Positions 41,501 to 64,000 of a stretch of DNA of 64,000 nucleotides are shown piece after piece. The translations under genes and the position numbers were made by a program. Where the stretch lies: assembly GCA_000934665.2 (NCBI GenBank), contig JYFJ02001210.1, forward strand, positions 1 to 64,000. Reading direction: 5' to 3'. The stretch is from Catajapyx aquilonaris (Eukaryota). The notes under the pieces were generated by a model. That model saw nothing but the letters and a program-made list of their open reading frames with translations, ran no database searches and was not told the origin of the DNA. Each line of letters starts with the position of its first letter. Position 1 is the first letter of the stretch.

Positions 41501-44500
41501 GTTTGACACCTGATTGCCTTCAAAATTATGTATCTACAATTTGCACCTTCCATTCGAGTAGATGACAAAAGCATCAAGTTCCGATGTCATTTCCCCCAAT
41601 CAGACCTGAGTAAGGCAAGAGGCGAGAACAGACCGCGTCTGGCGAGTCAGACAATACGGGAAATGGCATGACCTTCCTCATTCGAGATGTCCCTGCATTG
41701 TTGCGTGCGTGTATAGTTATATGCAGCGAGGGAGAGAGCGACAAAACCCGAGCCATTCCTCACCCTGCCATCATGTTTATCCCTGGGCGTCCCTGCCGAG
41801 CAGCAGCGGGGAACAAATCTGCCCCTCCATCCCCCCCTCCCGTCCTTTGCAAACTATATACCTTTTCCACCTACCCACTCAAGCTGATTACAAAACGGAG
41901 AGGAGGAGTTGTGCCGTCCTAAACTAAACGCTGCAACATTCGACCAAACCCCCTCCCCATCCCCCCCACCTTTCTAAACACGTCCCCAGCCTCCATTCCA
42001 ATGATACTCATCGATTAGCTTGTTGTAGCCTCTGCGGTTCCATTTGTCAACAGCTTTGCCTAACTTTCAGGAAAGTGAAGAGAGTTGGATTTTTTTGATG
42101 CTGAAACTCTTTTTTTCTGTATCTCTTTCCGGATGGGCCAACACAGCAACTCACTCCTTAAAGCCTTACTACGGAGTGTACATCGGAGACTTGAACAGCT
42201 ATGCACACAATATCAGCGGGAAGTTGTACGCGGTGGATGAGTACACGCTCTACCTGAAGGACCTTTACTACGATGGAAGAGGGCCAGGTAAGTTCTACTT
42301 GTAAATATTTACTTCGCGTGCTTTTAACGCTCATGATGTGGAAGTGCAAATATTTTTAACAGCATTCTGATATTAGGTTTTAAAATGCAAAGATGTGGCA
42401 TTAAATAAGTCATGTAGAGGAGAAATGCGCATAAATTCATAAAATACATTTTTAGTTCTCCCATGTTATGTATAAGTGAATCTGAGCTTTAACAAACAGT
42501 GCCACTGATTTGCTCCAAAAATGTTACCAGCTGGCTTATTTAGGTGGAATAATCCTGTCCCCTATAACATACAGTATATTAACATTGCAGGTCAGTACTC
42601 TTGTTAGATGAGCTGAAAAGAATCAAAGCTGCAGTTTGTTGTATGGCATTTTCCTTTAACTATTGCTTTCCCGGTTTTAATTTAATAATTAGCCACCTTG
42701 AGAAGGGGTGGTCAGTCAAGCTCTGTAGATGCAGAAATTATTTTTACATGCGTTTTATAAAATTTATCACTACTTATTTACTCTCAAAGACTTCTTCCGA
42801 CTGTTTCAGAATATAATATTGATCAAACCTGGCAATAATTATACTTCTAGAGAGAATAATATTTACGTAGGTGATACATATAACTTCTTATCCAAACCTG
42901 ACTTTTATATAGAATTTGCAACAATTCATGAAAATTTCCTTATTTACTTGTAGCCCTATAATAATTCATCTTCCACGTCGTGATTGTTAGACATAATTAT
43001 TATGTGTCATTCGTGCGTTATCGTTGTTGGACCTGCACTTGAACTCCAAAAGTCTAAAAGTAGACTATTATTTTGATTTCAGATGCATATTTCTGGGTTG
43101 GAAAGACCAACAAACCCACCCCAAATGGAATGATTGTGCCCTACCCACACCACTACCAAGGATCGTAAGTATAGAGTTTCTCTCATATACCGTTACTAAT
43201 TTACTCAACCGTAACCCGGGTCGCTCACTCAAGCGTTATTCCTCGTATGCATTCGACGCAAGAACCGATGATTATCTCGATTAAAAAAACATCAGAGGCC
43301 GATAGTTAATTTCACTCGTAATTTTCCTCGATCCTAATTACACCTAACGTATCTTACAATTAAGGTGACATTAGCCACTATTTTTCATTTCATGTCGAAT
43401 TTATGTCGACAGCGTAGACTCCATCTCTAACGTTTTGATGGGGCCTTTTCATTTCCCCATGAGCAACATGAAGCTCAATACCCCTCTTATACACACCTGC
43501 TTATTAAACCTTTCTTCTCCGGTATCAAAACATGCGCAGGTAATGAATAATAATAAAAAAGTCCGCTCATATTTTCAAACGTCAGTCATCTTTTTTTTTC
43601 ATCTTTTGCATACTACTCGGGGCGAGTTTCACCGCGTGCGAGGGCTGCTTCCAGTAGTACACTAAGGGCTGTTGGCCCGAGGGCAGCCGCGGCGTCGACG
43701 TCGTCGTCGTCGTCCTCCTTTATTGGAGGCTGGCGGCGGCAGCGTCGAGGGGGAGGTAAACAGAGTCGTCATAGGAACGGCGCATTTTCTGCCTCTGTGG
43801 CTCCGAAATTACAGCGCAGGGACAGGCGCGGTCAAAAAACCACCTCTTTCTCCACCACAACCTACCTTTCCTTTTTGCGATTCTCAACCCCCTTTGCCCG
43901 CAGAAATGAATCTGGGAGGTTTTTTTTTAAATATATCATATATAGCATATTCATTCCCCGAACCTAATGCTCTAGTGAAAGCCGGTGGCTTTTTGGAACC
44001 GAAACTTTCAAAGGGAAGCTTACACCCTACTTTTTACGGAAAAATGAAGAAAGTGAGCAAATTACGATGATAAAAAAGTGAGGATTCGTGTTCATGTTTG
44101 AGTGTTTTTATACATAGCACGTAAGGACTGCCAGAAATTAATTATTTGAACAACATACCGTAGCATATCGTTTTGAAATCTGATTATTGAATAGAGCAGA
44201 AACTCTGAAAAAATTAGTAGCCCTAATATTTCAATAATAGCCTACAATTATTTATTACGATATTAACTGCGGTAAATCACTGTGCATATAGAGGCTGTAC
44301 CATAGTTTGTGTCTATCCTCATTTGATTACTTGCAGCATTAATTTCAAATATTAATTCAACTAATCTAACTCTTTCTCTCGGAACTCTCACAAAATGTAA
44401 ACACCGACCGCAATTGCGTACGTCGCTCCGGTAACGAAGCAGCGTTTAAAGCTGAAGAGCGTGTATTAATTTCCCTGAAAGTTGTTGAAACAGCAAGCCC

Positions 44501-47500
44501 TTTGCTGCAACCTCATCCGCAGCAACAGCAAGCGAAAAGGGACGGTGTATATATATTCGACGGCATGTTTCATTGATGGGAGTGTACCGGCGACTGGTGA
44601 CAAGGGGCTGTTAGGGCCACGAGAGCTGATCGCCAAGTCGAGAGCTACCCTGATTGCAGAAAGGGGACTGACTTTAAGCGACAGCCTCCAACCAGGAAGA
44701 GAACTATTCGAGCGTTGAGCCTAGGCCCTACAAAGCATATAGAGTGCAGTGACTGTCAGTTGGATCATTGCAATCAAAAAAGGAAAGGGGGGGAAAAATG
44801 TGTCTTTCTATCCGAGTGCTTCGACACGATTTTTATGGATGATTTGTCGCAATATTGCCGGAAGATATTTTTTGGATTTAGATTAGTCCATATACAAGGA
44901 CGTAACAGAAAGCGTTGAATGCAAAATGCATAACATTCACTTGCTAATCGATAAATAAAGTATAGTGCTCGCTTTGTACATTTTCTCTAATTTCTTCTCA
45001 GATATGACGGGACAACTCTCTACAATATCACTTACAGCTCATTATTTGGTATTTGAGAATGGGAAGCAATCTGATACACCCTGTATTTTGCGAGAGGAAA
45101 TGGAGCTTCTCGCTTTCAACCCCTTCCATTCTCGGCATACTTCAGCTTCTGCTCAGAACCACTGTCTTCATCTCAATAATCCTACCTGTATTAAATTGCG
45201 CTAAGTCAAAATCAGTTGACCACGCTAAAACTTGTGTTCGCTACACTCTAGCATTGTTCCTCCAATTTAAACTCTGCAACTCTCCGTCTCAAGTCAGCCG
45301 CACTTTCCCCCGCAAGTCGACTTGTTAACCTCGATTATTCCTAGCAACTTCTTAATCCAGTTGCGAAGCGAGGCGCGCGGTTTGAAACAGTAACAGGAAT
45401 CCTTCACAACAGAAAAAGAGAGGAAAGAGAGAGACTAGCTTATCGTCCTCTCCATTCTCCCCCATGTCCCCATCCCCCTCTGAGAAAGCACCAAATTTAG
45501 AGCCGATCTGATTTAAATCGGCGAGCCCGCTTCCTCCATAAATAGTCCCGTGGGATCCGCCTAAATGATGTCACTCCCGGAAAGCGCCTTGATTGCTACA
45601 ATTCAGCCCGAGTGGGGGCTAACGTTGCAGAGTTGCCTACCCCTCACCCATCGACCCCCTTCCCTTCCCCCATCCACCCACCACTCAAAAATCCTCTCTT
45701 TAAACTTTAAAAGAGCAGGATCATTTCGTGCTCAAAAGTAAAATTGGGCTGATCTCTGGGTTCCAAATGAGCCCACTTATGTGAGATTGCCGGATCGAAT
45801 AATTTCTCTTTGTGTCAACTAGGAACCCCGTTTTACATATGCTTACTCCAAGCAAGCAAGTAAGCAAGCAAAGCCTGAGACAGTTTTCAACTCTTCAAAA
45901 TAATCTCGAGCTAAGATGGGAGGAGGGCTTATTCTCAGGACCATTAGTATGGTAACAGTCTGCGCTCTGTAGCAGTATACATGCTCGGTACATGAATAGC
46001 AAATGATAGCGTCTATACAAAGGGTGGAAAACTAGGTCAGGCAGATAAAGTTGCTGGAGGATGACTAGTTTTGCTCAAATCCTGCGCATATGCCACTAAC
46101 AGCAACACGTTGCCACTTATGCAGAACGGTGCGCTTCACAAGCGAGGGATTCTTTTGCCCCCAGCAACCAGTTCAAATATAAGCAACTGGTTGGAAGAAA
46201 CAATAAAAGCTTCTCCTTAACTGATTTCCGTGACTTGAACTAAGGACTGGAGCATAAATGTCCAAAAAATGACGCTGAAAGATGCGAGAGGTCTGATGAC
46301 AAGGTTTCATTAGAGTGGGTTCCTCAACCAGATACGGTCTCCCGCACACTATAATAATTGATGGTAACGAAGGAAATCATGTCCTGAGCGCTTCATTAAC
46401 GCTCCTCTCCTCTAATTTGAGACTGGATTATTACGTTAAGGATTCACCCGTGAGCACGCTGCGAGTCCAAACCCACTCTTCTGATAGCCGAAGGTTCACA
46501 GCGGTGTGAATTAGTAATAATTTGCAGATTTTTTTGTTTGTTTGTTTGTTCTGCGTGTGGGTCGACCTCAATGCAAATGACGTGCGTTTCGGTTGATGGA
46601 ACCACCCATTTCCTTTTCGCCAATTTCTTCAAACATGCTCATCGCCTCTGTTTCGCAATTCGTATTCGATCTTCCAAAACGAAGCCGACATTCCAGTTCC
46701 CGAAGCAGTCGGAATGCGCTAACGAGTTGTCGAGCTCCACGTACGGCGCAATCTAAATCCTCCTACCCCCCACACCTCTCAGTCCCTCCAACACCATCAT
46801 TACCTTCCAGTTCCTCTGGCGTGTACACTTGGAATTGGAAATGCGACCGGAGGCAGCGGTGCTTTCAATTGCTAGTTAACGATCGGAGACAGAGATGTCG
46901 CAATAAACCTCGCTTCATTAGCCGCCTTGTTAAAAAATACTGCGTATATGTCGAGAATTTTTATCCGCGAGTGATGACGCTTAAACTGTGCAAATGGAGG
47001 GACACGGTTCCCTTGTCGCGCACCTTTATACCCTACTAAAGTGTTGAAACATGCAGACCCTTAAGCATGTACTTGCATTGATGCACTGATTTCATGAATA
47101 ACTCGACGGAACATTTGCACTGATGGAAATTATGATCCAGTTTTCTATAGTTACTCAATTCGATTCAATTAGCCTACAGACTTCGCAAGAAACTCTGGAA
47201 ACTGCAGCTCACAGTTTAACCGAATTTGTCTTCATTTCCAGGGAACCACCAGTGTTGGGTCAATTTTCGGGAGAAGGGGTCATCCTCCGTCTTCCAAACG
47301 GAATCAAGCTGAGGGACATCAAATGGCTGTCCATCTGGTGCCGACGTTTTACGGTAAGACCATCTCTGCAAAGCAGCAAAACCCCTCTTAGAGCTAGGTG
47401 CTGAGCTTTACCTAGCTTTAAAGGGTAACAGGTGCCTGTTACAAACGTCAACATGGCCCCCGAATCCCATCCATTTAAGTTTGTGAAGAGAGTGAGTTGG

Positions 47501-50132
47501 AAAAAAAAGAGTGAGTCGACGGATCCAGTTATGATAGAATCACCTTGTTGGTCTAAAGAACAGCAAACATCTGACTTGTAGGTAGGCGCTTGGGACTCAC
47601 ACAGATTTTCCCGGGGCGTTATTTGTTTTCACCGCCGTTAGGTTTGCAATGCGGGGTTGAGGGCTTCGGTGGAGGAGGAGGAGGAGGGGGTATGTATCCT
47701 GTCTATAGGGTTGGGTTAGGTAGATAGAGTGGGGCTCTGTGAATGGCTATGGAAAGGCTAAAGACGACAGCTTTTCCAAGTCTGGAAGACGACAAAGGCG
47801 CTGGAGCGTTCTCCGACACTCCATCCTTCGCGCTTGGTTTCCTCTTTTAGCCTTCCCCACCACCACCACCACCACCACCACCATCCCCATCCCCCCCAAC
47901 TCTTGCCTCAGGAAATCATATTCTGACAAGAGACGTCGTCGGCACACCCCCAAAATCGAGGATGGAATGGCGGAACATTACTGCCGTAACCTCATCTCAA
48001 GGTCCGCTCGACACTTCCAAGGTCGGTTTCGAAAATGATCGAACCAGGTGATACCAGAAATCAATGGCGGAGTGCATTACGTAACGTAATGAATGCGCCT
48101 CTCTCCTTTATTGCCTGCTCGGAAAAGAAAGCAATGTGCTGTGTTGTGTCGCACGAAGGCTTTCTATATGCAAGGCAGGCGGAAACTACCTTTTATCCTG
48201 GAACAACGGCAATATTCCAGCCTTAATTGTCAGGCAGGTTGCGAGCCCTGCAGGCGCTGAAAGTCAGCCAATCAACTCAGACTGAAAGTATTCCGCAAGT
48301 ATAGCAGCTAGTGCTTTTTACCACTAAGCCGTTTACTTTTAATGACTATAAAATGTAGCTTCTATTTTCAGATTTAGCGAAGGTGTAAATTTTTATTGAA
48401 TGTAAGATGGTCTAGGCTGAAAAATAATTAGACAATTTACATGAAGAGCTAATGGATTTAAACAGGTCCAACTCTAAAATATGCATGACTTAAAGGGATG
48501 TATCCATTCGGCATAATATTATCGCGCAATATTACAATGCCAAACAATACGGGCAATGCCATCAGAGCGTGCTAAATATCTCTGCTGATGGCAAGTACCG
48601 AAAAGCTAGCAAAATTCAAATTATGGCCCATTGTAAATACAGTTGACTCCGGATATAACAGCCTCGGCTATAACAGACTGGAAAGGCTGGTCCCGCTATA
48701 CTTCCATGTATATGGCTATAACAGACCTCGGATGAAAATGTCTGATTTTCTCGGTCCTTTGAAGTCTGTTATAACCGAAGTCTACTGTATTAGGACAGCA
48801 TTTATGTAACAGTTATTAGCACTCTTTAATCATTACAACATTCATAATTGTTTCAAATTATGGTCAAAAGTGTACATGAGACTGTAGTACTCCAGACGCA
48901 CGTCATAAATCATATAATGCTTCCTGAGAGTTCTTCGTTATGGTTCGATCGGCCCTCGGTCAAACAAAAATATAAAAGCAGACCAGGTAACGCAGATAAA
49001 TGATATCTTTTCAAAAACACGATCAGCAAAACTTGTATAAACGCTGTGGAACAAAGTAATTCAGTGAAAACTGCGGCATGTGAAAGGCCCCTTTCCATAA
49101 CTTATCCATGAGACTATCTAGACGGGAGCAGATGGAATATTGCGATATCACCCGCCGCAGTTGCTATTCAGAGTCTTGCGGAGAAGCATCAACTGTATAC
49201 TGCATAAGGACGCCTCCAGGGATGCGATTTAAGCTGATTAGGAAGAATAGCCCATTCAGTACAGTATATACAGCCGGTCAGATTACTGCAGGAACTAACT
49301 TTCGTCCTGCACATGCACAAAGTTATATCTGTCTATTTGCATGTGAAATAATTCAAGCAGTCTGGTCGGTCGCATGGGCAAACCACAATCGGATTCCCAG
49401 AACCCATTTCTCCCTATCCTTCTATCTGGTCAAACGGGAAAGAATATCAGATTTCAATTGAGAAAAAAAAATCCCGTCCAATAATAATGAATAATAAATA
49501 ATTCAGACGCTGCTTCGGGTGGTCGCCTTATCTGCATTCTTTCCTTGTTTTTTTTCTGTAGTAGGGTAAATTACTTGGAATAATTTTATGCTATCCAAGT
49601 TCACTGTTCAACAATGGCTAAAGGGGAGCTGTTGCCGATCCTTAATCCGACAGATTTTTTTAAAAATATATTAAACTATCTGGTGTAGATTTGGCAGTGA
49701 ATCAACTATGAACAAGAACATGTCTTACCCTGGTTCAGTAACCCGTTGTACGCAACAATCAGGACCAGATTCCCTTGCGACTGTTGTTTCTCTGTCAACT
49801 GATTGCCTGAGTGAGCAGTCCACAGCAACTTCTATGGGCAGTGCACGTCACCTTTTGACAAGCCTGTCTAACACCTGTTTACACGGGATGCGTCACACGT
49901 GTACCAATCTCCGCAAGTGACCTATAACACAGCAGAGTCTCCCAGCCTCCCTCCCCCTCAATTCCTAGGTATACGCTCAGCCGTCTTGAGATAAGGGGTA
50001 ACGAGGGGTATCAAAACGGGCGCCCCGGTCATTTGCAGGAAATATGACGGGAAATGTCACCGTAACAGAAAGGTCTAATCCGCCTAGCGCCCCGTATCAT
50101 CGCCAGGCCACGCGGGGCTCACAGGGCAAAAG

Positions 50133-50206
<74 letters not shown>

Positions 50207-53200
50207 CACAACCCAACCCCACCCAACCATCCCATGGGAAAGGCAAAGAGAACCGTGCCACCCCAACCAACCAAAAGGAGAAGTGATTCCGGTAGGAGGG
50301 AGAGAGTGTTCATTTTAGCCAACTTCTGCCCCCCCCCTTTAACATTTTCTTATTGCGACTTATGGGAAGATATTGCGGTCCATTCAAGGATCTGACGCGG
50401 ATTGATATATCAAGCCACTTCTCTCTCGTCCCTCCAAAAAAAACGAACAAAAAATATTCAATTAATATCCGGTCGTCACTCCCAGTACTATTTCGAAAAC
50501 TGGGTTAATATTTTTATCACGTCATGAAATTTTTTTGGAGTTCATTATCGCGTAATTATAATGCGATTTGGGTGACACGTGCTGAGCGATTGATATTCAT
50601 GACTGCAGCATGGTGATGATGCTAATGCTGCATTCAGTTAATTCCCAGCGAATCCGGGTAATGGCATTGAACATTTTCGACGCCTCTCTGTGCGCGCAGG
50701 AGCATTTTTCGCATCATACAGTGTGCAGTACAATGCAGGATCAGGATATAGTTGCAGTTGCGCAAAGCAAGGGCCCTTTTGTACACCATTATGCATTTTT
50801 TGATCCAAAAAGGCGCCCTTTTATGGTTTCAATATCAATAGAGGTTTTAAAATGAGTCGCTCAAACTTTATACATCGCATTATGAAGCATTCATAATCTT
50901 TTTACACTATCATTACATTGGCAATATACATTTAAATTCGCATTCGCGTCATAATACATGGTGGTGCAGTGCCACAGTTTAATAATGGGGGGGGGGGGAA
51001 GAAGAAGGTCTGCTCCGTAAATTTATTTTGAGCGCTTTTTTGACTTTCTCTCCCAAAGTAGCCAATACTCAATGTTTTTGTGCTCTTTCAATTGACTCGA
51101 TTACTCAATTTTAAAGTAATTCTTCCATCGATTTTGGTATTCAAATAGACAGAACGGTTACTTGAGAAGATTAAGATCAAATCTCCTTTAAAATGAGTCG
51201 TCGTGTGTAGGAAATTTAGCAGAAAATGTCTCGAAATTATTGGGAAAGTGGATTGTTCGACACAGAAATCAGTTTGAAGAGAAACAACCCCGTTGGAAGC
51301 AACAGTCAGGGCCATTTTCACACTGCTTATGATTGTTGCTTCTCTTTAAACGGACACTACTCGAGTGAACAGTCCATAACTTTCTCGGGACTCGGGCAGT
51401 GCACCGCCCTGTACAGTGTTGCTGAAGTATACACTTTGCCAAAGTGAGGGCAGACCCAGCCTAGAATAAGCCCTCTCTTGTAATTTATGTACAACACTGG
51501 TACTCTAAAGCTTATCTATGTGGAATTTCGAAGGAAGCGCCCAATTGAGAAGGCTCCCAGTAATAATGTTCTCCGTCGGTATCTCCCACCCTAATTTCCG
51601 AAACTCATGTCGTCAGTGGTTCCGCTCTTTTCGTCCTCCCCCCTCCCCCCCTCCCCCGCCCACCAACCTCCATCTGGCAGACAACGACGAGCAAAAGAGT
51701 TTGTCGAAAAGTCGCCTAAAGAATCGAATAGTCTCCGCAGAATTCGCTCATTTGACTCCACGCAGATCATGGCTTTCCCTCCCCCCCATCCCTTCTTCCT
51801 CCTCATTCCCATTACATCCCCCATCTTCCTGGAAAATCCTTCCCCCGCTGGTCTCATTAATGGTCTCCCTCCCCCTTTCTATCATCACCCATCATTCCCG
51901 TCAACCCCTTCTGTCACCAAAAGGATGACGTCATTGTCCCCTCCCCCATCCAGGAATACGCCAGATTACGTGGGCGGCGGCGCTTTTGACATCGGACAGC
52001 GTGTACCCTGTTTGCCTAAGGTCTTATTTACAAGGGCGATCATGTCGAGCCCCGCATCCATGTAAATCCACTGTTTTCCACAGGTCAGCCCTAAAATAAT
52101 TATGCAAATTAACAAACTCATTTATTTTCAGACTGACAATCTTGTACTATTCTTATGGCCCGTGGAAATAATGCGATGGGTTGTGTAATGCAACCAAAAT
52201 TGGTGACAATGCCTGTAACTAGTGGTGACTGGAGCCAGTTTAATGCAGTGGCGTATTAATCAGCACCTCTTTTCCAGCAGTGTTGTGACCACTGAAGCCC
52301 GACCAAGCTAGCCAGGCAATCGCGAATTGAAAGGGAGGTGGGAGGGAGGGAGCAGGTCCTCCTCCTCCTCCTTCCTCCCCCTTTCCATTTACCCCTTTTC
52401 CCCCCTTCCCCCAACTCTATACCTCCCATCCGGGAATCCGGGATCGATAACTTGGAGTCCATTTGCAACCTCCACTCCATTTAGGCGATGAAACGCCTCC
52501 AGCGCAGTTGACTTTCGTTTTGCGCTGCGATAAAGAAATCAGCATGGTGTGTGGGAGAGGGAGGGAGGGAGGGAGGGAAGGAGGGAGAAAAGGGGAAGGA
52601 GGAGGGAAGGGAAGGGACTTCTTACAAACAGCCTGGCATCGACTTACACGCTTTTGGACCCCCACACATCGATTCTATTTGGATTCATACAGGATATTAA
52701 ATTTCCTATAGGTGATTGCCAGCTGAAGAATAATCAAACGGGCCCCTCAAAAAAATTACAAGGTGGTACGCTACAAGTTGACACTGGGAAGGGGTAAAAC
52801 GCGCTAGTTATTTCCCAGGATGATAAAAATAAATATTGCGGGAATCTTACCTCACAAGGCTTATCATAAAAATATGAATAAAAAACCGTATGAATGGCAA
52901 GGAATGGCGCAAGAGTCAAATTAATCGGTTCCTAGCACACAACAACAACTTCCTTGAGCTAATTCCCTCAGGAAGCAACGTGGATAGCACTCATAATTTC
53001 CACCGGAGCACTTTATCTTGGAAAAAATGAGCCCGATTCATTTCCTACCGCCCGCACACGAGTTCACGCTCTCATTCACACAATTCAGCCAGCGTTAAAT
53101 TCTCAGATATGCCAAGAACAAATTAGATTATTCCAGGCTAACCTTTTCAAAGTGTTTGTTCATCTGAAATTAAACTCCGACGAAGCAAATCCGGACCACC

Positions 53201-56200
53201 GGTTTTCCCAGGCTACTTTTCAGATTGGACTTTTTTTTTGTATGTAACTCACTCCGCCCTCCTCGGAAACTATCGACGCCACGCATCGAACGTTAATTCC
53301 GCGTAAAAACGAGCATATGCATAATTATGTAATTACTTCTGAGCGACTGCAACGATAGGATTCGCATGACAGTAATGATGATGGGTAATGTCGCCACGGA
53401 ATAAAGGACAGGTATGGCGGTGTTTACAGTTAGCAAATTGGTTGGATCCTTCAGATTTTGTAAGTTGAATCTGATTCTAAACAAAATAATATTAAATGCA
53501 TACGATTCCGCCCTTCTGTGACTTCAGGTCAGCTATTAAACATGATGAATATTTATGGTACTTTGCATTGGAATAGTTAAAAATATTTTGCATTTGAATA
53601 TAAAATAATGTTTCACCCACTGCCCTGTACGAATGGTAGGAAGTTCAGCAAGTAACAACACAAATTGAAAGAAAATTTCCGGATATGACACAATCAGATG
53701 TTTTTTCCCTTACTCTGATGTAATTAGTACTGAGCAAGGTAAACACAGAGTATAGCATTATTTTGATACGGACTGGTTTGGCAATTAATGTGCTGTTTAG
53801 AAATAATTGCCCTTCGTTTTACTGTAGTATAGTGGGAAGTGTATCATGAACCGCACTGTATTAACTTCGTTAGGTCTCATTTCGGGGCTGCAATATCTGG
53901 TCAGACAGAGTGCTCAATACCCATCCAATATTGCAGTCTGCTCAAGTTGAGCGCGCATTTAGCTCGGGCATGATCGGAGCTGCATCCAATTAATCCGGGG
54001 GAGTAAAGTGATGGGAATAGGGGGGAATAAGGGGGAGCGGAGGGGAGAGAGGGAGAAAAGTAAGTAAAGGTAATTGCGGAGCATGTTGTCTGAAGGAAAC
54101 CTTCCACCACCATCACTGTACTTTGCTTGGGTTGGAAGCTAAGCGCAGTCGACAAAGATCCTCTTACACAGCAGCCATCTTCTCCTGCCTTGCTCCGGAT
54201 CTCTGATCTTGCTTACAAAGCTGTCCTAAATGCTGGGCTTGTGCCTGTCGTCTCCCTGATGCTGCTGCTGCCTTGCGTCTTCTGTCAACCGCCCGGGGCA
54301 CATTATTTTACTGTACTTTCTCCCCTCAACTGTATACTTGCAAGATAACTGGCTGCTGGGAACGTGAACTTTAATGCCTGCTCCAGCGCTAAGGCTCATG
54401 TATGGAGCACCCGCAAATCCCTTCTCGTCCAGGGCATTTGAAGTGGTATATACATAAAGCAGGGTGCATGGAGAAGGAGGCTTAAAGGAAGGCTTCAAAA
54501 GGAAAAGTTGGTCGTCTTGCTTCACTAGAAAAGTTCAAGGAGGGAAAAAACCTTCTCCGATAAGAGAGCCCTGCCATTAATTCTGGTATAGCCAGTAGTT
54601 GTGATTGGAGGTCAAGTTCCTCTGGAGAAGCAGCAAGTCCCACTTTGTTGTATCCCTCGTGCGGTGCTCATTATCATGATGCGAGATCGATTGGGTCGAT
54701 TGACCGTTCCCCTCTGCTCGCTGCCTCGTTTTCTGGCCTAAGGTATGGTATAAGAGAGAGCCTTTCCCGAAACTGACTCACCCATGACGGCAAAAATACT
54801 CGATATAATATATACACTCCGGAGGGAGCGCTGAGAGAGACGAGCGAAGGAAAATAAATGGGGGGGGGGGGAGGGATGGAAGCTGGATCAACTCTATTCA
54901 ACTCGGTTAGTCAAGTAGAGAGCAACGCAGTACCTAATTATAACAAGCCCTTCAGGCACACGGGCAAAAATCTACGTGTATAAAAGCCCGGTTTTTTTAA
55001 AGCGGAAAAAGTGTTGCCGCGTGTGCTCATCACGTGTTCAAAAATGCGATGTTAAGGGGGAGGTTTCCACCAGTACATTTTTTGCTTAGAGCCAAATGTA
55101 AGCCAGGACAATTTTTGCCAGGGGGGATTTTATGTAGGACAGATTTTGACGTGTTCCAACTGAAGGCAGGGAATGTCCTGAAAATTTCTGGTATACTTGG
55201 CAGGCATACGATGTATTTTCTCCACTCGCCAATTAATTACATCTGACTCAATTGCACACCATAAATTGAGTGTATCAACACATACGCCACATATATTTTG
55301 TAGATATTGCTTCATAAACCAAATTAGAAACCACTAGGAGATTCCAAGTTACTGTACTTTCTAAATATCATTGCGAGTTATGTTCTGCTCAATGTCAATT
55401 TCAGTGATGCTCTTAGCCACATCCTACACTTCAACTAGGATTCTTTCCTTTGTAGCGAACCGAAGGTACTCACTCAATATGTCCTTAAATCAACAATTAT
55501 TATGTAGATCTGACCGTGAGCAAAACGGGCGTAAAAATTCCCAAGTGGCACAATATTATGGATGTTGAAAGATAAGTTGCACTAAAAATATACTTATGCC
55601 ACGTTCAGTGACCTCAGAAAGGCATTTATTTCTCGTCGAGCACAATATTTTCCGCCTTTGAACTGTACTTTAGGTCGGTAAAATCCAGGCTTTAATTGCA
55701 GGATTTTAAAGCTTTGGGTTGTCATCTCTGAACAGATGCTTCTGCCTATATTTCAGCAGTCCTAAACTCGTAAAACAGCCCCAGTGAATACCTATGCATC
55801 GAGCATTTGCGCCTCTCCATACCATTACGCACTTGACAACAATTCCCCCCCGTTGACTTTCACTCACACATTGTCGTCATGCAAATGAGACACAATTTGT
55901 TCCATGCAGCCTATGCAAACCCATTCTATCACACGCATTCCAACCGAATACTCCGCGAATATTGACTGTGCTGCGCAATCTCACCATATTTTTTTTCCGT
56001 CCGCAGCTCTCATGAGCTACCATTGTTCCCATTGTGATGGTCTCAGGGAGGAGGATGGAGCGGGGGAAGTAGAGAGCAAAAAAATTATCCTCATCAAAAG
56101 GAAGGGAAAGGAGAGGGGGGGCGTTGAAGGGAGACTGTATCCGGAGGGGCTAATTTAATGGGAATAATTGGGAAGGGGTTGAGAGAGAAAGGCTGAAGCC

Positions 56201-59200
56201 TAGGTGTCAGTTGGCAATGGCAACCGGAACGCGATATCCAAGAGATGACACGAGAGAGAGAATCTCAGAAACTCATCCCTGAGCCACTGTTTACGAGCCT
56301 TGAATAGGCCCAAAATCAGAAGGGCGCAAGTGATATTCGCATCACGTCGAGGTAATGAGCCCTGAAGCTGCGACCTTTCCATCAAAGCTCAGCACCTGCT
56401 TTAAACCATTAGCAGTATGAATTGTGGCCCATGCATACGGAACCAAAGTCAACTGGGCCTGGTCCGGACCCGGTCTGCAGCTAAAGATGAAGTGCAAATG
56501 AACCAATTTTTAAATCTCTCCCAATTACAGCGTGCCCTTCAAAAATGTAACTAATATTATTCTGGCCCACGTATGATCAGCCCACGACCTTGTTCAAATG
56601 TCAAGGTGGGTCTGGAATGGGGCTCAATTAACGGTGAAGCGCGATTAGTGACGTGCTGGGTGGGTTTCGAAATGTCTGCGGTGTTTGAAATTGGAAGCAG
56701 ACAGAAATGGCAGGTGTGGGTTGCAGTCGTTGCACTAACAAAGCTGAAAGCTACCGGAGGGATTTATTTTGGACAGAAATCTAATCAGGCTGTTATACGG
56801 TTTCAATTTTGCAAATAGAAAGTGGAAGGAAAAGACGGAAGCGTGGGATGCTTTGCTCTCCCGTGTCAAATCTGGCTTCATTCTTCGTCTGAACCTCAGC
56901 CAGACAATACATTCCTGGCCTCCATTACTTGCATTATTGCTTACCAAACATTGCAGCGTGGGTGTTGGACATGTTCATCACGCCAACCTGAAAGCAGAGG
57001 TTGGCAAGCAATAATGGCATTGCCCATTCCAACCGTGGCCGTCACCATGCTGTTTCGAACGGACATTAATTTGGCATTAACTCCTGCACTACGGAATAAT
57101 GAAACAAGAGAACGTGGGAAGTCTACTGACGCTATTTTTGGTGCCTGCCAATGTACTCTTTGCTACGAGAATGAACCAAGACACTGCCCATATGCTGCGC
57201 GATAAATAATGGGCATTAATCAGTGATTTTCCACTGAGATTGACCCAGTGAGGGGGCGTAACGAGATTTCGACCTGATGAAACTAAGTCTGCCGATCACA
57301 CTAGTAGGGGGCTGGGCCGCGTAGTTAGCGAGATAAAAGACCCAATTTTGCAAACCAGTGTCCTGCAAAAGGGCCAATCCTCCCTGCACACGCCTCTCCC
57401 CCGCCCTTAGAAGCGATCCCCTAGTTTCCACCAGACAGGAAAAATATGAAACGAGTTTTCAACCCTCCCTAGTCCTAAATCGCTCTCTTCAGCCTCTTCC
57501 TATATATATTTTTTTTAGGGTGGGCCTCGTGTGTGGGGGCAGCCCCACGGGCTTTGTCACCGAATTTCTTGCATAATCCCCTCTTTTGATGTCGTCTCTT
57601 CAAAAGCTTTCCCCCATCCTCCACAGTACACATTCATACTGTAGTAAGCAGGAGGACCTTTGTAGTCTATTACAAATGTGATGGTCCAGTGCCTTAGAGA
57701 TTTTATTATCTTGCTCTGCCCTCCCTCCCTCCCACCATCATCTCTCTCCCTCGACTGTGCAACCCCCCATCCCTCCCTCCCTCCCTCCCATCTCGAGCAG
57801 AAAGGGAGAATTAGCCGGATTTGTATGCTGGGCGCCTAGCGACAGACGAGCGAGACGAGACTTTAGGGGAGTGGGATCCGATAATGTGTCCCTCTTCCTC
57901 GACTCGGGGCTGCACGGGATAAACGATGCGCCGTTTCCGATTGGTAAGACCAAACTGCTCCTGCGCCTCGTCCCCCCNCCCCCTCCACCCCTGTTGCTAC
58001 TTCACCCTGAAAGCTCAGATGCTGCTTATGTACACAAACTGCCCACTGCGCTCCAGGAAATCACTCCATTAATAAGTTTTTTCTAGCTCTTTAGAACGAT
58101 TGTCGTAAAAAAGAACTTCTGCATAATAACTCCGGGCAGAAGGTGGTGAAAACGGCATAATGTTTCAGGCAAGGTCGCCAAGGGTGTATTATAACTAACT
58201 ACCAAGTTTGAAGACTATAGGAAACTTGCATTTGGCGAAAGCCCCTTGTTAGCAGCCATAAACGCGAATTATGAAATATCCTGGCAGGTATGCGTCCCTC
58301 CGAGCGACCTAGTCTTTTTTCATCTAAAATGCAATAGTATCGGCCCAATTTTAATATGAATAGCCACCGAGGTCGCGGAAGGTCATGAATGACATGGTAC
58401 AATGAGATCTACGATTAATGCTAATTTTCTCATACTAAATGAAACCTCAATTTGCTGGAATTATTATGAAACACCTTGTGTGTCACTTGAGTCAAGTCTC
58501 GCCGCTGACGTCAACGGGTGTGTTTGTACCGCGGTGTCACGGTCGATTAGAGGTCATGCAAACCCGAATTAGTCGCTAGCAAACATTGGCAACTGTACAT
58601 TTTTGGAGCACGGGTATTGACAGTGCTGTGCAGAGTTTAGGCCTCTTGACACAGGTTTCTCTAACCGGTACAGCCAATCAGTAAGGCTCCTTTCGGCTCA
58701 CAGTGAGCAGCCAGACGCCACAAATTGGGGCTTCATTATCAGGAATAAGCCTTATCCGATTCTCCTTCTCATCTCTAGGAAACAGCTCCAAGCATGAACC
58801 GCAATCATGAAGCATCCATTAGTGAAGTTGCCAATAGACCCTATTCTGCAAACATATAGAAAGATTTTTTAAAAAAATCACATTGGATGCTGAAGGATGC
58901 TGAAGTGGGATGACTTACATTCTCACATCAGACAAGGCAGACAACTTTGATTATTCAATAGAATTTAAAATCCAGGGACAGTTACTGTATATCATAATGT
59001 TCCCATAATTCCCGAGTGTCTGTTACAATATGAAACTCAAAAATATGCAAAATCGCAACATTAAACCTCGGATTTGCGAAATTACAGAATCGCCTGTAAA
59101 AAGCTAGGATTCGTCTCTTCACTTACAATACGATTAGGATCTAACAGCTCAACCTCCACTAAAAATGTTATCCCTTCAAGGTGAAAACCATCACTAGAGT

Positions 59201-62200
59201 GTGAGTATTTTTTCGTGCTTCTCATAATTTTTCCCTAGCGTCACTGAAACATTCCGTACTGAAGTGCATTTTATCCTTCCACACTGTGTAGAAGCCGATT
59301 CTGTAGAAAAACTGGCAATTCCGCGAATCGCATCGAAAACCCTGCGCCAAAGTTTTGAATGTTTCATTTGGCAGATTTTAACGGTTTGAACTCTTAGTTC
59401 TGAGCAAGCCCCTATAATACAATTAGCGAGCACGAAAAAAAAAACCCCCGGCCAGTACTCCAGTGTACTGTAATAACGTCGTCAACTGGGTGCACCTTGT
59501 TAAGTGCGTCAAATTCCGCGTAATTTATTGAAACTTTAATGAGACCTCTCCCGGCTCAAAACCCGGCTTAACAAAATTTGGATTATGAGTCATAAAGCTT
59601 TACAAGTGGAATAAATTCGGGTCTGTACTGTAGATGGAAGGGGGGGAAAAGCCCTGCGGGACAATGCCGAACGAGGCCTGTTGCTGTACGGCGTCGATTC
59701 ATCGCCACAAAATTCGCCCAGGCGTCGAGTCATCGCCGCGCCGATTTATTGCGTTGCGTACGTCACAACAACCAGTTAATCGCGAGCGTTACCGCCTCTA
59801 TTGGCCTCGTATTTCCCGAATTTTCCCCCTTTATTGGCTGTTTTTTTCCCGAGGAGACAGCAAACTATGACATTCTTATATAGTGTCGCGTGTTTAACAA
59901 AGGTTGGAGACAAGTACAAGGAAATAATATTGAACCAACATTTTTCAATGGACATTGAGCAGATATACTTGCTGCACATGACAATTTCCTGTTCAGAGAA
60001 TTTTCCAGCAATCATTGCACTGCTAGCTGATACAGTCCCTGATGATTTTTTTCCCCTAATTACTCATCAGGACTAACGCAAATATTGAATTGCTACAATC
60101 GAGTTGAGAGCCAGATCAATATTGTTGGACTATAGTGCAAATTGTTAGCATTCTCCTCCCCTCGCCCTTCTCTGGAACCAACCTGGCCTTCTCAACTTCA
60201 CCTGCTGGAAAGTCTGGAAAGAAAAGAGGGGTGGGGTGATCGCATGGGTGGGGTGGAAACAGATACAGAGCATGTCATTAGCGAGATTCCATCCCTGTTC
60301 CCCTGCGAGCTGAGCGAGCGAGAGAGTAAAGACTGCGAGGCTTTGGAAGCGCCCTTCTCAAACTTCATATAACTAGCGCCCCCCCCCCCTCACCTCCCTC
60401 TTCCTTGAAAATAAACCCCCTTGCAACTTGGATCTGGCTTTATTTTCTATTATCGCTCGGATCTAGCTCACGACGAAACGGAAGGGTGGGTGGGAGGGAG
60501 GAAGGGAACCTTTCCTTTCAACCCAACTTAATAGGGAGAATTAGATCCTGCGTTTGTGCCGTCGACGACGAATTTCCAACGCGTTAGCTCGGCTATTACC
60601 AAGTTTCACGGAGTTGGGACGGTTGCCAACAGCGCAGGAGAACTGCTCAAAAAAAAATGGAGGAGGGTGGGGGAGAGACTGTGGTGAACACTGCTTTTAA
60701 CTGCGATAACCAGGGAATTTATGAATAAATCGCTGCAGTAAAAGATGGCCGTAAAACCGAATTATGGAGTGTTTCTTGGTAAGCTTCTTCGTGTTTCGCG
60801 GCATAAATGTTTGCATCAACCATGTCAGCCAGGGTTCAGAACTGGCAATTTTTAACAACATTAGAGATATAAAAACATGAATGAATGTCTGTTTAATTTC
60901 AGGTGAATTTCGGCGACGCTTACATCCCCCCGAATCTGGACCCCCCGCGCCCGCGTGTGTTGCCCGAATTCAAGCGCTTCGCCCACGGACTCAGATCTGG
61001 AAACATAACCATCCTGGACTCCAAGACCATTTACATACCCAACCTGCACTACGACGGGGCCGGACCCGCCGCGTATTTTTGGGTCGGACGAGGACCCGAA
61101 CCCGGACCCGACGGGATTAAAGTTCCGGACGAGGAAGGAAGGTAAGGGTTTCCATATATCCACCCCTCTCATATTCATATAGGAGGATGGCAATTCATAC
61201 CACATCGATTTTTCATTAAAAGGTGCTGCGATATGGAAAACCTTGAATACGAAATGAAACGCGGGCGGAAGCAAACCATACATACTTTTTTTTCCACGTG
61301 ATGATCATACGTCAAAATGTACAGTCCGCCGTTGTGATCTCCTGCAATTCATTGTTTCGCGTTATCATCACTTCTCGTTCAGAAACTTGTAATCCTCGAG
61401 CCCTGCTGGAGGAACCGTTTCCTCTTTGAAGGAAAAACTCTTCCAGAAGTTGGGACTTGCGAGTATATAGGGTACTTGTCCGGTGGCTATTTTTCTGGTG
61501 TTAAATGAGGTGGCAACCCAGTTACTGTGAGAGGTTGGGGGGAGCTAGAAATTTTCGGGAGAAGCTGTGGAAGGGCCAGGGTGTGAGGGGGGGTTCACAC
61601 CATTATACCTGCAGAGCCTTGTTCGTCGGTATTCAGCGGCGGCTGCTGGCCCCGAAATGAAAGTGCAGTCACCGGAACTAAGTGCTCGGCGTCATATCCG
61701 GAGCTCCTGATCGCGATAAAAATGGGGACGGACGGCCCATTTTCCGGACGGGACACTGCACTTCTCAGATGAAGTGGGAGGCAGGCTAGGAGGGGGGGGG
61801 GAGAGGGGAGGAAGTCGAGAAATTTTGCTCTGGACTCTTCACATAGATATTTTTGTCATCTTTCTTGAAGGTGATGGGGGTATGGGCTGGATATTTTCGG
61901 GATGGAGCATCATAGCCCAACAGAATTTCGATCATCGCCTTCAAAAAAGAAAAAAAGACCCGGACATCACACACTATACCGGTTGAAGAGGTCTTCTTTA
62001 ATTGTTTAGCATCATTTGCTCATTGAATATTTCAAAAGCTGAACATCGCTTTCCGCCCAGTACAATGCTGCATTGGGAGCTCATCAATAATTAATGAGAC
62101 ATAAATATTTCAGCTAATTCTCGCTCTGCATAGGCTGCATGAAGCGTAATTAATTGGTATATAATTCACTTTCAGGGACAGCGCTTTAAAAGTATGTCAG

Positions 62201-63733
62201 AGAGCTCCTCGTTCCTAAATTTTGCATAATTTTATCGGAGTTTCTGATTGACCGACGTGTTCCATACGAAGCTGAATACACAATAGGACTCGACCCAATG
62301 CCTTTTGCTTCTTTTTTTTAAATATTTTATTTCAATGCAGCTTGGCTCCACTGAGCGCTTACGAAGGAGAAGACATCCAGATAGTCCTGCCTGGAGACAT
62401 GACAGTGCACGACATCGGCCACCTGTGCCTGTGGTGTGTGGACTACCGACAAAACTTCGGTCACGTAATCATACCTCCGAACCTCGACGTCCCTCCTGCA
62501 CTGGGACAGACCAAAATCACTGTGAGTGAAGAAGAGGACGATGATTAACTATTTCCATGTAGTGTCTTACATTTATGTTAGCAACAAACAAAAATGTCGT
62601 TCTAAACTTACAGTTTAGACATTTGATGCCAGTATAATCGAGCTACCTGTACTTTTTACAGGCACACTGCCTTTATTTTTCATGTACAAGTATTTGCCAT
62701 AACAATTATTGTTGACTGGTTGGGGTTATTTATTTGTGGTTATGCTGCCCAGCTAGTAATTGTAGTAGTTGCTACAATGCTTCGTTATTAATTTATCACT
62801 GTCCAAATGACTCCAATAAATATACGATATGCACAAGAGGTCATTGTCCCAACTTTCCAAGGGAGGATTTTAAAAACAGGGCAGGAATTATCCACAATAA
62901 TGTGACCCACAATAATGACGCCGTTAATGAAGAGATCACTTAATGTGGCACAAATTCGGAACCGATACCACAAAAATAATGAGCCCGAACGACCGACACA
63001 AAATTTAATTGGAGTAACTCGCTCGTTGTCACTGATTAATCCGCTTTGATTCGCGGTACTTAAATCATGAGTGGCCATTTAGAGAGCCATATTCAAGTTG
63101 ACTCCGTGGGAAACTATATGAGTACTTTACTGCAATTGGAACTATGCCATGAATCAGATCTTTTTCTACTCACAAAACAGTTCCCCCTATACGTATTATC
63201 CACCCCCATTTTTATATAAATTAACAAACATGCACCTTTAAAAAATCATGCACAAAATTTAACACACGTCCAGCTTAATTTCTGGCTTTCAAAACGCACC
63301 TTGATGGTTATGAATATTAAAATTGCACTTCAATTAGTGTAAAACTATTTTGTGGTTCATCCAGTCGATGCAATTGGAAGGACCCATTTTATGTAAACTG
63401 AATTAACTATCATTACACAGCCATTTCGTGCCAAATATTTGTGCAATATTAATGTAGAAGGCTAGATCTAGCTGCCAGGGTAAGCTGGACAAGCTCATTG
63501 CACCCTCATGCACAGTAAATGCAAGAACAGTGTACTGCACATCTCTATTCATAGGTGCAGTGCATTAACAGAAGCTGGACTTTTATCGACCCCCCAAAAA
63601 ATAATTTTCATACAAATTGTAACAACAGTTTGTTCGTTGTGAGCGGTCTTTCCCTCGACGCTCTAGGTTGACAAATCCTCTTTGTTTTGCATGTCTTACC
63701 TTGACATCTTAGCCTTCGTGGTGGTACAACCCT
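20486..63733 (+). CDS. Knickkopf/Skeletor-family DM13-domain protein ('protein Skeletor-like', probably Knk2 clade), 3'-partial. join(20486-20540, 42147-42287, 43083-43164, 47242-47353, 60903-61141, 62341-62521, 63713-63733, ...)
   Basis: Spliced product (277 aa so far): signal peptide MVGHTVYIWGLLALFTIPATHS, DM13-1 (YYGVYIGDL...AHNISGKLYAVD...YDGRGPDAYFWVG...LRDIKWLSIWCRRFTVNFG) and DM13-2 (AHGLRSGNITILDSKTIYIPNLHYDGAGPAAYFWVG...LWCVDYRQNFGHV). All introns are GT-AG with consistent phases (1,1,2,0,2,0). The DOMON domain typical of the family is expected downstream of the window. Confidence 0.9.
42147..42287 (+). CDS. Knk/Skeletor-like exon 2 (DM13-1 N-terminal part)
   Basis: ...acacag|CA ACT CAC ... 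GGG CCA G|gtaagt; encodes THSLKPYYGVYIGDLNSYAHNISGKLYAVDEYTLYLKDLYYDGRGP. Confidence 0.9.
43083..43164 (+). CDS. Knk/Skeletor-like exon 3
   Basis: tttgatttcag|AT GCA TAT TTC TGG ... GGA TC|gtaagt; encodes DAYFWVGKTNKPTPNGMIVPYPHHYQG, in a frame not shown in the ORF track. Confidence 0.92.
47242..47353 (+). CDS. Knk/Skeletor-like exon 4 (DM13-1 C-terminal part)
   Basis: ttcatttccag|G GAA CCA ... TTT ACG|gtaaga; encodes EPPVLGQFSGEGVILRLPNGIKLRDIKWLSIWCRRFT. Confidence 0.92.
48640..48787. mobile_element. Tc1/mariner superfamily (pogo/Tigger-like) MITE, 148 bp
   Basis: TA target-site duplication (48638-48639, 48788-48789). TIRs CAGTTGACTCCGGATATAACAG and reverse complement CAGTAGACTTCGGTTATAACAG (19/22). 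Internal repeats of GGCTATAACAG. Confidence 0.85.
50134..50202. repeat. (CT)34 microsatellite
   Basis: Uninterrupted CT dinucleotide run of ~69 bp. Confidence 0.95.
60903..61141 (+). CDS. Knk/Skeletor-like exon 5 (linker plus DM13-2 N-terminal part)
   Basis: tttaatttcag|GTG AAT TTC GGC ... GAA GGA AG|gtaagg; encodes VNFGDAYIPPNLDPPRPRVLPEFKRFAHGLRSGNITILDSKTIYIPNLHYDGAGPAAYFWVGRGPEPGPDGIKVPDEEG. Confidence 0.95.
62341..62521 (+). CDS. Knk/Skeletor-like exon 6 (DM13-2 C-terminal part)
   Basis: ttttatttcaatgcag|C TTG GCT ... ATC ACT|gtgagt; encodes LAPLSAYEGEDIQIVLPGDMTVHDIGHLCLWCVDYRQNFGHVIIPPNLDVPPALGQTKIT. Confidence 0.95.
63713..63733 (+). CDS. Knk/Skeletor-like 21-nt microexon (PSWWYNP), phase 0-0
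   Basis: Pyrimidine-rich tract ...tcttaccttgacatcttag|CCT TCG TGG TGG TAC AAC CCT|gtaagt; in frame after ...GQTKIT. Confidence 0.75.
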
Positions 63734-64000
63734 GTAAGTATTCACAGAAACTTGTGCTTGACGATTTTGACGCTGAAGATACGTCTCTTTTAGCCATTTT
63801 TGTTTGTCATGCATTACTTTTCACACGCACTGCCTTTTGGTTTTTGGGTGTTGGTAGCTAACCACAATATATATTTATACCGAGGGGGAAAATGGTGGAA
63901 AATTAAGATTGGTGCTGGCAACACGTTTGTTGGGCTATGTAGTCAGCTTTGTCAACAACGCTGTAGTTTGCATGGCGGGGTGATGGGTGATAATTAGCCC

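Follow-up and report, generated by a model that had tools for sequence, protein, structure and literature searches.

The 64,000-nucleotide (nt) stretch of Catajapyx aquilonaris contig JYFJ02001210.1 analyzed here (the window) holds the 5′ part of a gene that we assign to Skeletor, and near the end of the window lies a 21-nt microexon that encodes the heptapeptide PSWWYNP. We consider it very likely that this microexon is a genuine coding exon of a Skeletor orthologue, that it is optional in insects, and that the insert it encodes lies in an interdomain linker, where it may act as a binding patch. A preliminary description made from the letters alone had proposed the exon, together with a TGCATG at 63688 to 63693, and all of these letters are as it claimed.

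A 21-nt exon and its counterparts in insect Skeletor

The exon, CCTTCGTGGTGGTACAACCCT on the forward strand (63713 to 63733), is stop-free and of phase 0-0, is bordered by an AG acceptor and a GTAAGT donor, and is directly preceded by ...cttgacatcttAG. The pyrimidine fraction of its acceptor tract, from −40 to −4, is 0.70, in agreement with the U/C-rich acceptor described earlier. The exon before it ends at 62521, after a complete codon, with ...GGACAGACCAAAATCACT (GQTKIT), and a GTGAGT donor follows; this is coding exon 5, there being five coding exons up to GQTKIT, and not exon 6 as the preliminary description had it, unless an untranslated first exon is counted. Since exon 5 closes with a complete codon and the microexon is 21 nt long, a multiple of three with phase 0 on both flanking introns, its inclusion or skipping would leave the reading frame unchanged.

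Splice signals alone were rejected as proof of an exon: between 62522 and 64000 (1,479 nt), there are 43 stop-free, phase-0 AG...GT candidates of 3 to 51 nt. We judge the exon to be genuine because its peptide motif is significant, which the splice signals are not. P.WW[YF].P has a single match, at 63713, in the 127,996 six-frame codons of the window, where 0.008 matches would be expected, and the microexon site has no second copy elsewhere in the 64,000 nt. A chance open frame, or a dead and unused exon relic, would accord with the presence of 43 comparable frames in the same 1.5 kb, but it is almost certainly the wrong explanation: the motif is unique in the window, six of the seven residues match PPWWYNP, the commonest insect form, all seven match those of three insect proteins (from Daktulosphaira, P0234; Adelges, P0244; and Ctenocephalides, P0263), both splice sites are intact, and the exon is an island of similarity to seven other lineages. 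A search of Rfam with positions 60000 to 64000, on both strands and at E values of up to 1, gave no match at the microexon; the only match, to the long noncoding RNA fragment family ZEB2_AS1_3 (61730 to 61821, minus strand; 19.7 bits against a threshold of 55 bits, E value of 0.55), was taken as chance.

The preliminary description had also mentioned a PxWWYNP stretch in insect homologues. This proved correct, and the stretch is found at exactly this junction, after GQTKIT. A GQTK-type junction is present in 191 of 337 retrieved proteins; P.WWY follows it directly in 84, 97 are without the insert, 9 are short open reading frames (ORFs) that read through into the intron, and 1 is not long enough to be scored. 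The nine short ORFs continue as GQTKIT V... and thus mark the same intron position. Among the 84 insert-bearing proteins, position 5 is Tyr in all, position 7 is Pro in 83, and the insert is followed by Thr in 82. Apis cerana isoform X1, for example, reads GQTKIT-PPWWYDP-TSST..., and other inserts include PPWWYKP (Diaphorina), PPWWYNP (Lycorma), and PLWWYSP (Drosophila serrata). Judged by source names, the insert occurs in ten orders: Hemiptera, Hymenoptera, Coleoptera, Lepidoptera, Diptera, Trichoptera, Neuroptera, Siphonaptera, Ephemeroptera (Cloeon), and Odonata (Hetaerina).

Genomic counterparts were sought by scanning metagenome contigs with a degenerate pattern of the exon and its splice sites, which gave 17 loci. 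A tblastn comparison identified ten of these as Skeletor, exon 5 being recognizable on the upstream side, the DOMON-side exon on the downstream side, or both; L004 was accepted as an eleventh on account of flanks nearly identical to those of three of the ten, and AG and GT border the exon in all eleven. Six loci without Skeletor similarity (L001, L005, L008, L009, L011, and L013) were dropped, and three matches of the same pattern in genome contigs, all in records with bacterial titles, were taken as chance. By best protein match, the accepted loci are termite-like (L002 and L003, joined by L004 and L012 through near-identical flanks), leaf-cutter-ant-like (L010 and L017), mayfly-like (L007), fruit-fly-like (L016), and other dipteran-like (L006), with L014 (PSWWYHP) and L015 (PVWWYSP) unplaced. 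The eleven loci count as seven lineages, or eight with the window.

Similarity between the window and each locus consists of AG, the 21 nt, and the donor only (25 to 34 nt), and no alignment of the window intron with the orthologous loci extends beyond the exon and its splice sites. Within the four termite-like loci, which are close relatives and were counted as one lineage, invariant columns make up 52 to 96% of the alignment from about −180 to +170, compared with 22 to 42% further upstream in the intron; the flanks of the exon are shown to be constrained in this one lineage. Such flank constraint is typical of regulated cassette exons.

In the unplaced locus L014 (positions 795 to 1226, oriented), the exon agrees with that of the window over its first 15 nt, and 11 nt in the donor region are likewise shared. 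An exon starting TSTANPAYPYP...NCRELL lies about 190 nt further on, and the L014 protein is 52 to 59% identical to any sampled insect. With such a divergent protein, L014 may come from a second non-pterygote lineage that has the microexon.

The host gene

The gene in the window is supported by sequence comparison as an orthologue of arthropod Skeletor, which excerpts of Chaudhari et al. (2014; PMC4140639) equate with Knickkopf-3 (Knk3). Its nearest named relatives are insect proteins annotated as “protein Skeletor, isoforms B/C,” with 65 to 73% identity over exon 5. On a quick maximum-likelihood tree (33 rows, 277 columns), the window protein falls inside a Skeletor clade of 25 rows with a Shimodaira-Hasegawa-like approximate likelihood ratio test (SH-aLRT) support of 99, and Knk-type representatives fall outside. 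Within this clade, its branch is long (0.89) and lies outside the 18 rows of pterygote insects (SH-aLRT, 84), and its identity over the tree columns to any sampled protein is at most 71%. The earlier assignment to a Knk/Skeletor-like gene can therefore be narrowed: the nearest relatives and the tree point to Skeletor (Knk3), not to Knk or Knk2.

Exons 1 to 3 were located by tblastn with full-length Skeletor proteins of insects and Artemia (Table 1). The first DM13 domain lies in exons 1 to 3, and the second is split across exons 4 and 5. Skeletor is secreted and consists of a pair of DM13 domains followed by a DOMON domain and, at the C terminus, an At5g54830-like domain (Pfam PF25489). In this arrangement, the microexon would be spliced between the exon that ends the second DM13 (...GQTKIT) and an exon, beyond the window, that opens a Thr/Ser-rich linker and the DOMON domain.

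Table 1. Positions of the Skeletor exons, the microexon, and nearby candidate signals in the window
Feature	Position	Strand	Basis or remark
Coding exon 1 (probable): ATG, signal-peptide-like start MLKLFFSVSLSGWA..., beginning of first DM13	42098..42287	+	tblastn; start codon inferred; donor CAG/GTAAGT
Coding exon 2: ...DAYFWVGKTNKPTPNGMIVPYPHHYQG..., first DM13	43083..43164	+	tblastn; boundaries read
Coding exon 3: ...EPPVLGQFSGEGVILRLPNGIKLRDIKWLSIWCRRFT, end of first DM13	47242..47353	+	tblastn; boundaries read
Coding exon 4: VNFGDAYIPPNLDPP...DEEG, first half of second DM13	60903..61141	+	Pfam DM13 profile positions 1-58, E value 1.5e-11; tblastn
Coding exon 5: second half of second DM13, ends ...VPPALGQTKIT	62341..62521	+	Pfam DM13 positions 60-104; donor ACT/GTGAGT
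Intron 5′ of microexon	62522..63712	+	1,191 nt; no intronic similarity to orthologous loci
TGCATG (UGCAUG in RNA), candidate RBFOX site	63688..63693	+	Starts 25 nt 5′ of the exon
CTTAC, best-placed branch-point-like YTNAY	63695..63699	+	A at 63698, 15 nt 5′ of the exon; putative
Microexon CCTTCGTGGTGGTACAACCCT, PSWWYNP	63713..63733	+	Orthologue of the insect Skeletor P-x-W-W-Y-x-P cassette; unique in six frames
Microexon donor GTAAGT (context CCT/GTAAGT)	63734..63739	+	Read from sequence
Second TGCATG, downstream intron	63969..63974	+	236 nt 3′ of the microexon

Coding exons 3 and 4 are separated by a 13.5-kb intron (47354 to 60902). The window contains two N bases, which are seen as X in ORF translations at about 57.9 to 58.0 kb.

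The insect Skeletor isoforms B/C (Drosophila Skeletor and Tribolium TcKnk3) resemble the window gene in domain order and in the exon boundary after GQTKIT, and they share with it the 7-residue insert, its 21-nt length, and, in genomic loci, its AG/GT borders; they differ in sequence, the window protein, on its long branch, being at most 71 to 73% identical to any named insect protein. The paralogues Knk and Knk2 have the same DM13-DM13-DOMON architecture, with a short linker before DOMON. Unlike in Skeletor/Knk3, however, their linkers read ...VPPSLKMLGVSPQSKLNCEVL... and contain neither GQTKIT nor WWY. Across the proteins compared, the insert is specific to the Skeletor/Knk3 branch.

Optional use and its possible control

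In all five same-species isoform pairs tested, the presence or absence of these seven residues, at residue 275, is the only difference. The pairs are Apis cerana X1/X2, Andrena cerasifolii X1/X2 and X3/X4, Temnothorax curvispinosus X1/X2, and T. nylanderi X1/X2. Because the five pairs differ by the seven residues only, the microexon is, at the level of gene models, a cassette in insects, with both forms made. The preliminary description had called the exon skippable, and for insects this holds in five of five pairs.

In Andrena cerasifolii, isoforms X1 (P0182) and X3 (P0233) differ only by 12 residues, TSSTPSPPLSKQ, directly after the microexon, and X4 lacks both segments. This part of the Thr/Ser-rich linker looks like a second, adjacent cassette of 36 nt.

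The exon could instead be constitutive in the organism of the window, with insert-less forms limited to some insects or due to omissions in gene models. Microexons are frequently overlooked in annotation, and termites provide a case in point: the termite protein models (P0258, P0259, and P0261) lack the insert, yet the termite-like genomic loci (L002, L003, L004, and L012) have an intact exon with conserved flanks. The exon is thus probably missed or underannotated in the termite models, and since termite-like DNA has the exon and the termite models do not, absence from a model does not mean absence from the genome. In the window itself, the donor is strong and the acceptor tract is pyrimidine-rich, as a constitutive exon would have them. 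On the other hand, both forms are modelled side by side in five same-species pairs, which argues that skipping is real in Hymenoptera, and the raised conservation of the flanks is typical of regulated rather than constitutive exons. We therefore consider constitutive use unlikely and favor the cassette.

If the microexon is a regulated cassette, RBFOX is one candidate regulator. The UGCAUG at −25 overlaps the branch-point/polypyrimidine region and would allow an RBFOX protein to repress inclusion, and the one at +236 could have an enhancing effect. The 64,000 nt contain 19 copies of TGCATG (0.30 per kb), so that about 0.02 would be expected in any given 60-nt stretch; two hexamers within 300 nt of the exon, at −25 and +236, have a Poisson probability of about 1.4%, calculated post hoc. 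Conservation of the upstream hexamer was judged by presence and position only because the introns do not align. All four termite-like loci have TGCATG at −27, within the most conserved intron block (96% invariant, −31 to +19), and a positional match in one of seven other lineages has a probability of about 1%, again post hoc and no proof. Against RBFOX control, upstream (U)GCAUG is limited to two of the eight lineages: within 100 nt of the exon, it is present in the window and the termite-like loci, which count once, and absent from both dipteran-like loci, the mayfly-like locus, the ant-like pair, L014, and L015. Downstream, GCAUG occurs within 300 nt in three of eight lineages and in one of the four termite-like loci, about as often as a GCATG rate of 1 per kb would give. 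RBFOX control, as suggested in the preliminary description, is not established by an element near −25 that only two of eight lineages have in common. We regard it as possible but doubtful.

A second candidate is the neural program that depends on the eMIC domain of Srrm234 (SRRM3/4 in vertebrates), whose microexons are marked by UGC near the 3′ splice site. In excerpts of a study of flies (PMC8797185), eMIC-dependent exons have UGC near the 3′ splice site, an unusually long AG-exclusion zone, a CUAAY branch site, and weak 5′ splice sites, and they are poorly conserved outside Drosophila. The length of the Skeletor microexon, 21 nt, would fit this program. UGC is present within 60 nt upstream in seven of eight lineages (Poisson-binomial P = 0.033 against the local intron background), and the AG-exclusion zones measure 44 to 115 nt across the lineages (44 nt in the window), similar in both respects to the fly eMIC exons as characterized in those excerpts. 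These two features, however, do not set the microexon apart from the constitutive acceptors of the same gene, used as a control in the window: the window microexon has its UGC at −25, but three of the four control acceptors also show UGC within 60 nt, and the AG-exclusion zones of these controls measure 17 to 52 nt. No CUAAY branch site is found upstream of the window microexon, and its donor is a strong GTAAGT, compared with the weak donors given for fly eMIC exons in the excerpts. The fly-type architecture of a long AG-exclusion zone, CUAAY, and a weak donor is therefore not that of the window microexon. “Skeletor,” “CG43161,” and “FBgn0262717” have no occurrences in Tables S1 to S5 of PMC8797185, which include a list of fly eMIC-dependent exons with 171 rows. 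In addition, the Skeletor microexon is conserved, whereas fly eMIC exons, by the same excerpts, are poorly so outside Drosophila. The UGC mark to which the preliminary description drew attention does not establish eMIC control, given that UGC and the AG-exclusion zone are as in constitutive acceptors, the donor is a strong one, and the fly tables do not contain the gene. We consider this explanation very unlikely.

Like neural eMIC microexons (Srrm234 in flies and SRRM3/4 in vertebrates), the Skeletor microexon is very short and frame-preserving, encodes residues in a surface or linker location, and has UGC upstream and conserved flanks. Unlike them, it resides in a secreted, cuticle-type host protein, has a strong donor and no CUAAY, and is deeply conserved across insect orders.

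The insert in the protein and what it may mean

The position of the insert was examined in Skeletor of Lycorma (P0017), in which it occupies residues 275 to 281, after both DM13 domains and before the DOMON domain (303 to 436, by Pfam). An AlphaFold2 model of this protein, built on 70 aligned sequences, has a mean predicted local distance difference test (pLDDT) score of 88.6 and a predicted template modelling score (pTM) of 0.54. The pLDDT is below 50 at residues 271 to 292, a nominal helical turn is placed at 276 to 279, and a Thr/Ser/Pro-rich stretch follows the insert. According to the model, the insert is in a flexible hinge between DM13 and DOMON and has no predicted packing on either domain. 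Pfam and AlphaFold2 thus agree with the linker position given in the preliminary description.

Knickkopf-family proteins organize and protect chitin in the arthropod cuticle. Inclusion of the microexon would add a proline-bounded aromatic triad, P-x-W-W-Y-x-P, to the interdomain hinge. Because Tyr-5 and Pro-7 are conserved, we infer that the insert, instead of belonging to a folded core, is a short exposed motif that would bind chitin, another glycan, or a protein partner.

Several points weigh against the reading of the microexon as a genuine exon that is optional in insects and encodes a linker binding patch. The next exon lies beyond base 64000, so that the downstream splice partner is outside the window. 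The isoform pairs are database gene models, with names such as “isoform X1/X2,” and use of the exon as optional in the window's own organism is presumed, along with its inclusion, skipping, and regulation, by analogy with other species. The 84:97 split between proteins with and without the insert is biased and represents no frequency, since one search query had the insert and another did not. The definition of the insert fixes P1, W3, and W4, leaving positions 2, 5, 6, and 7 free to vary; P1, W3, and W4 therefore say nothing on conservation. Artemia franciscana isoform X2, the only named non-insect Skeletor-type model, reads GQTKLT-TVPP... without the insert, and one spider and two mite relatives have neither GQTKIT nor WWY. 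Finally, the low AlphaFold2 confidence at the hinge says nothing on what the motif binds.

A more far-reaching proposal is that the microexon is an ancient, nonneural regulated switch that predates winged insects, in which a WWY clamp toggles the grip of the hinge on chitin or a matrix partner and an ancestral UGCAUG serves as the off-switch in some lineages. Its bearers would be the divergent lineage of the window and insects of dragonfly, mayfly, and fly grade. We put this forward as a speculation that is improbable. In a bolder variant, the Trp/Tyr triad could be a redox relay between domains. The label of DM13 in Pfam is “electron transfer.”

The closest published case is TcKnk3 of Tribolium, which belongs to the same family and apparently involves the same intron. 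As described in excerpts of Chaudhari et al. (PMC4140639), the intron that follows exon 5, where the DM13 pair ends, contains exon 5a, which serves as an alternative terminal exon, and probably also an internal start of transcription. The alternative exons of TcKnk3 given there, 5a (1,156 nt) and 8a (55 nt), are unlike the 21-nt exon of the window, and these excerpts do not describe a 21-nt exon. With exon 5a and a probable start in intron 5 of Tribolium, the intron of the microexon (62522 to 64000 in the window) appears to be a hub of alternative processing. The same excerpts report that the function of Knk3/Skeletor depends strongly on the transcript made and that the 5′ exons of TcKnk3 are dispensable for survival in RNA interference, which bears on the strength of any microexon phenotype.

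The exon is already in public gene models of many insects, and the window adds a divergent lineage to its known range. Our literature search found no paper on a Skeletor microexon; “Skeletor” and “microexon” co-occur only within unrelated references. Gene models in several lineages, such as termites, probably miss this exon. Insect microexons that are deeply conserved and do not belong to the neural program are rare, and the Skeletor microexon is one of them; its conservation across ten orders, with Tyr-5 in 84 of 84 proteins and Pro-7 in 83 of 84, points to a specific interaction.

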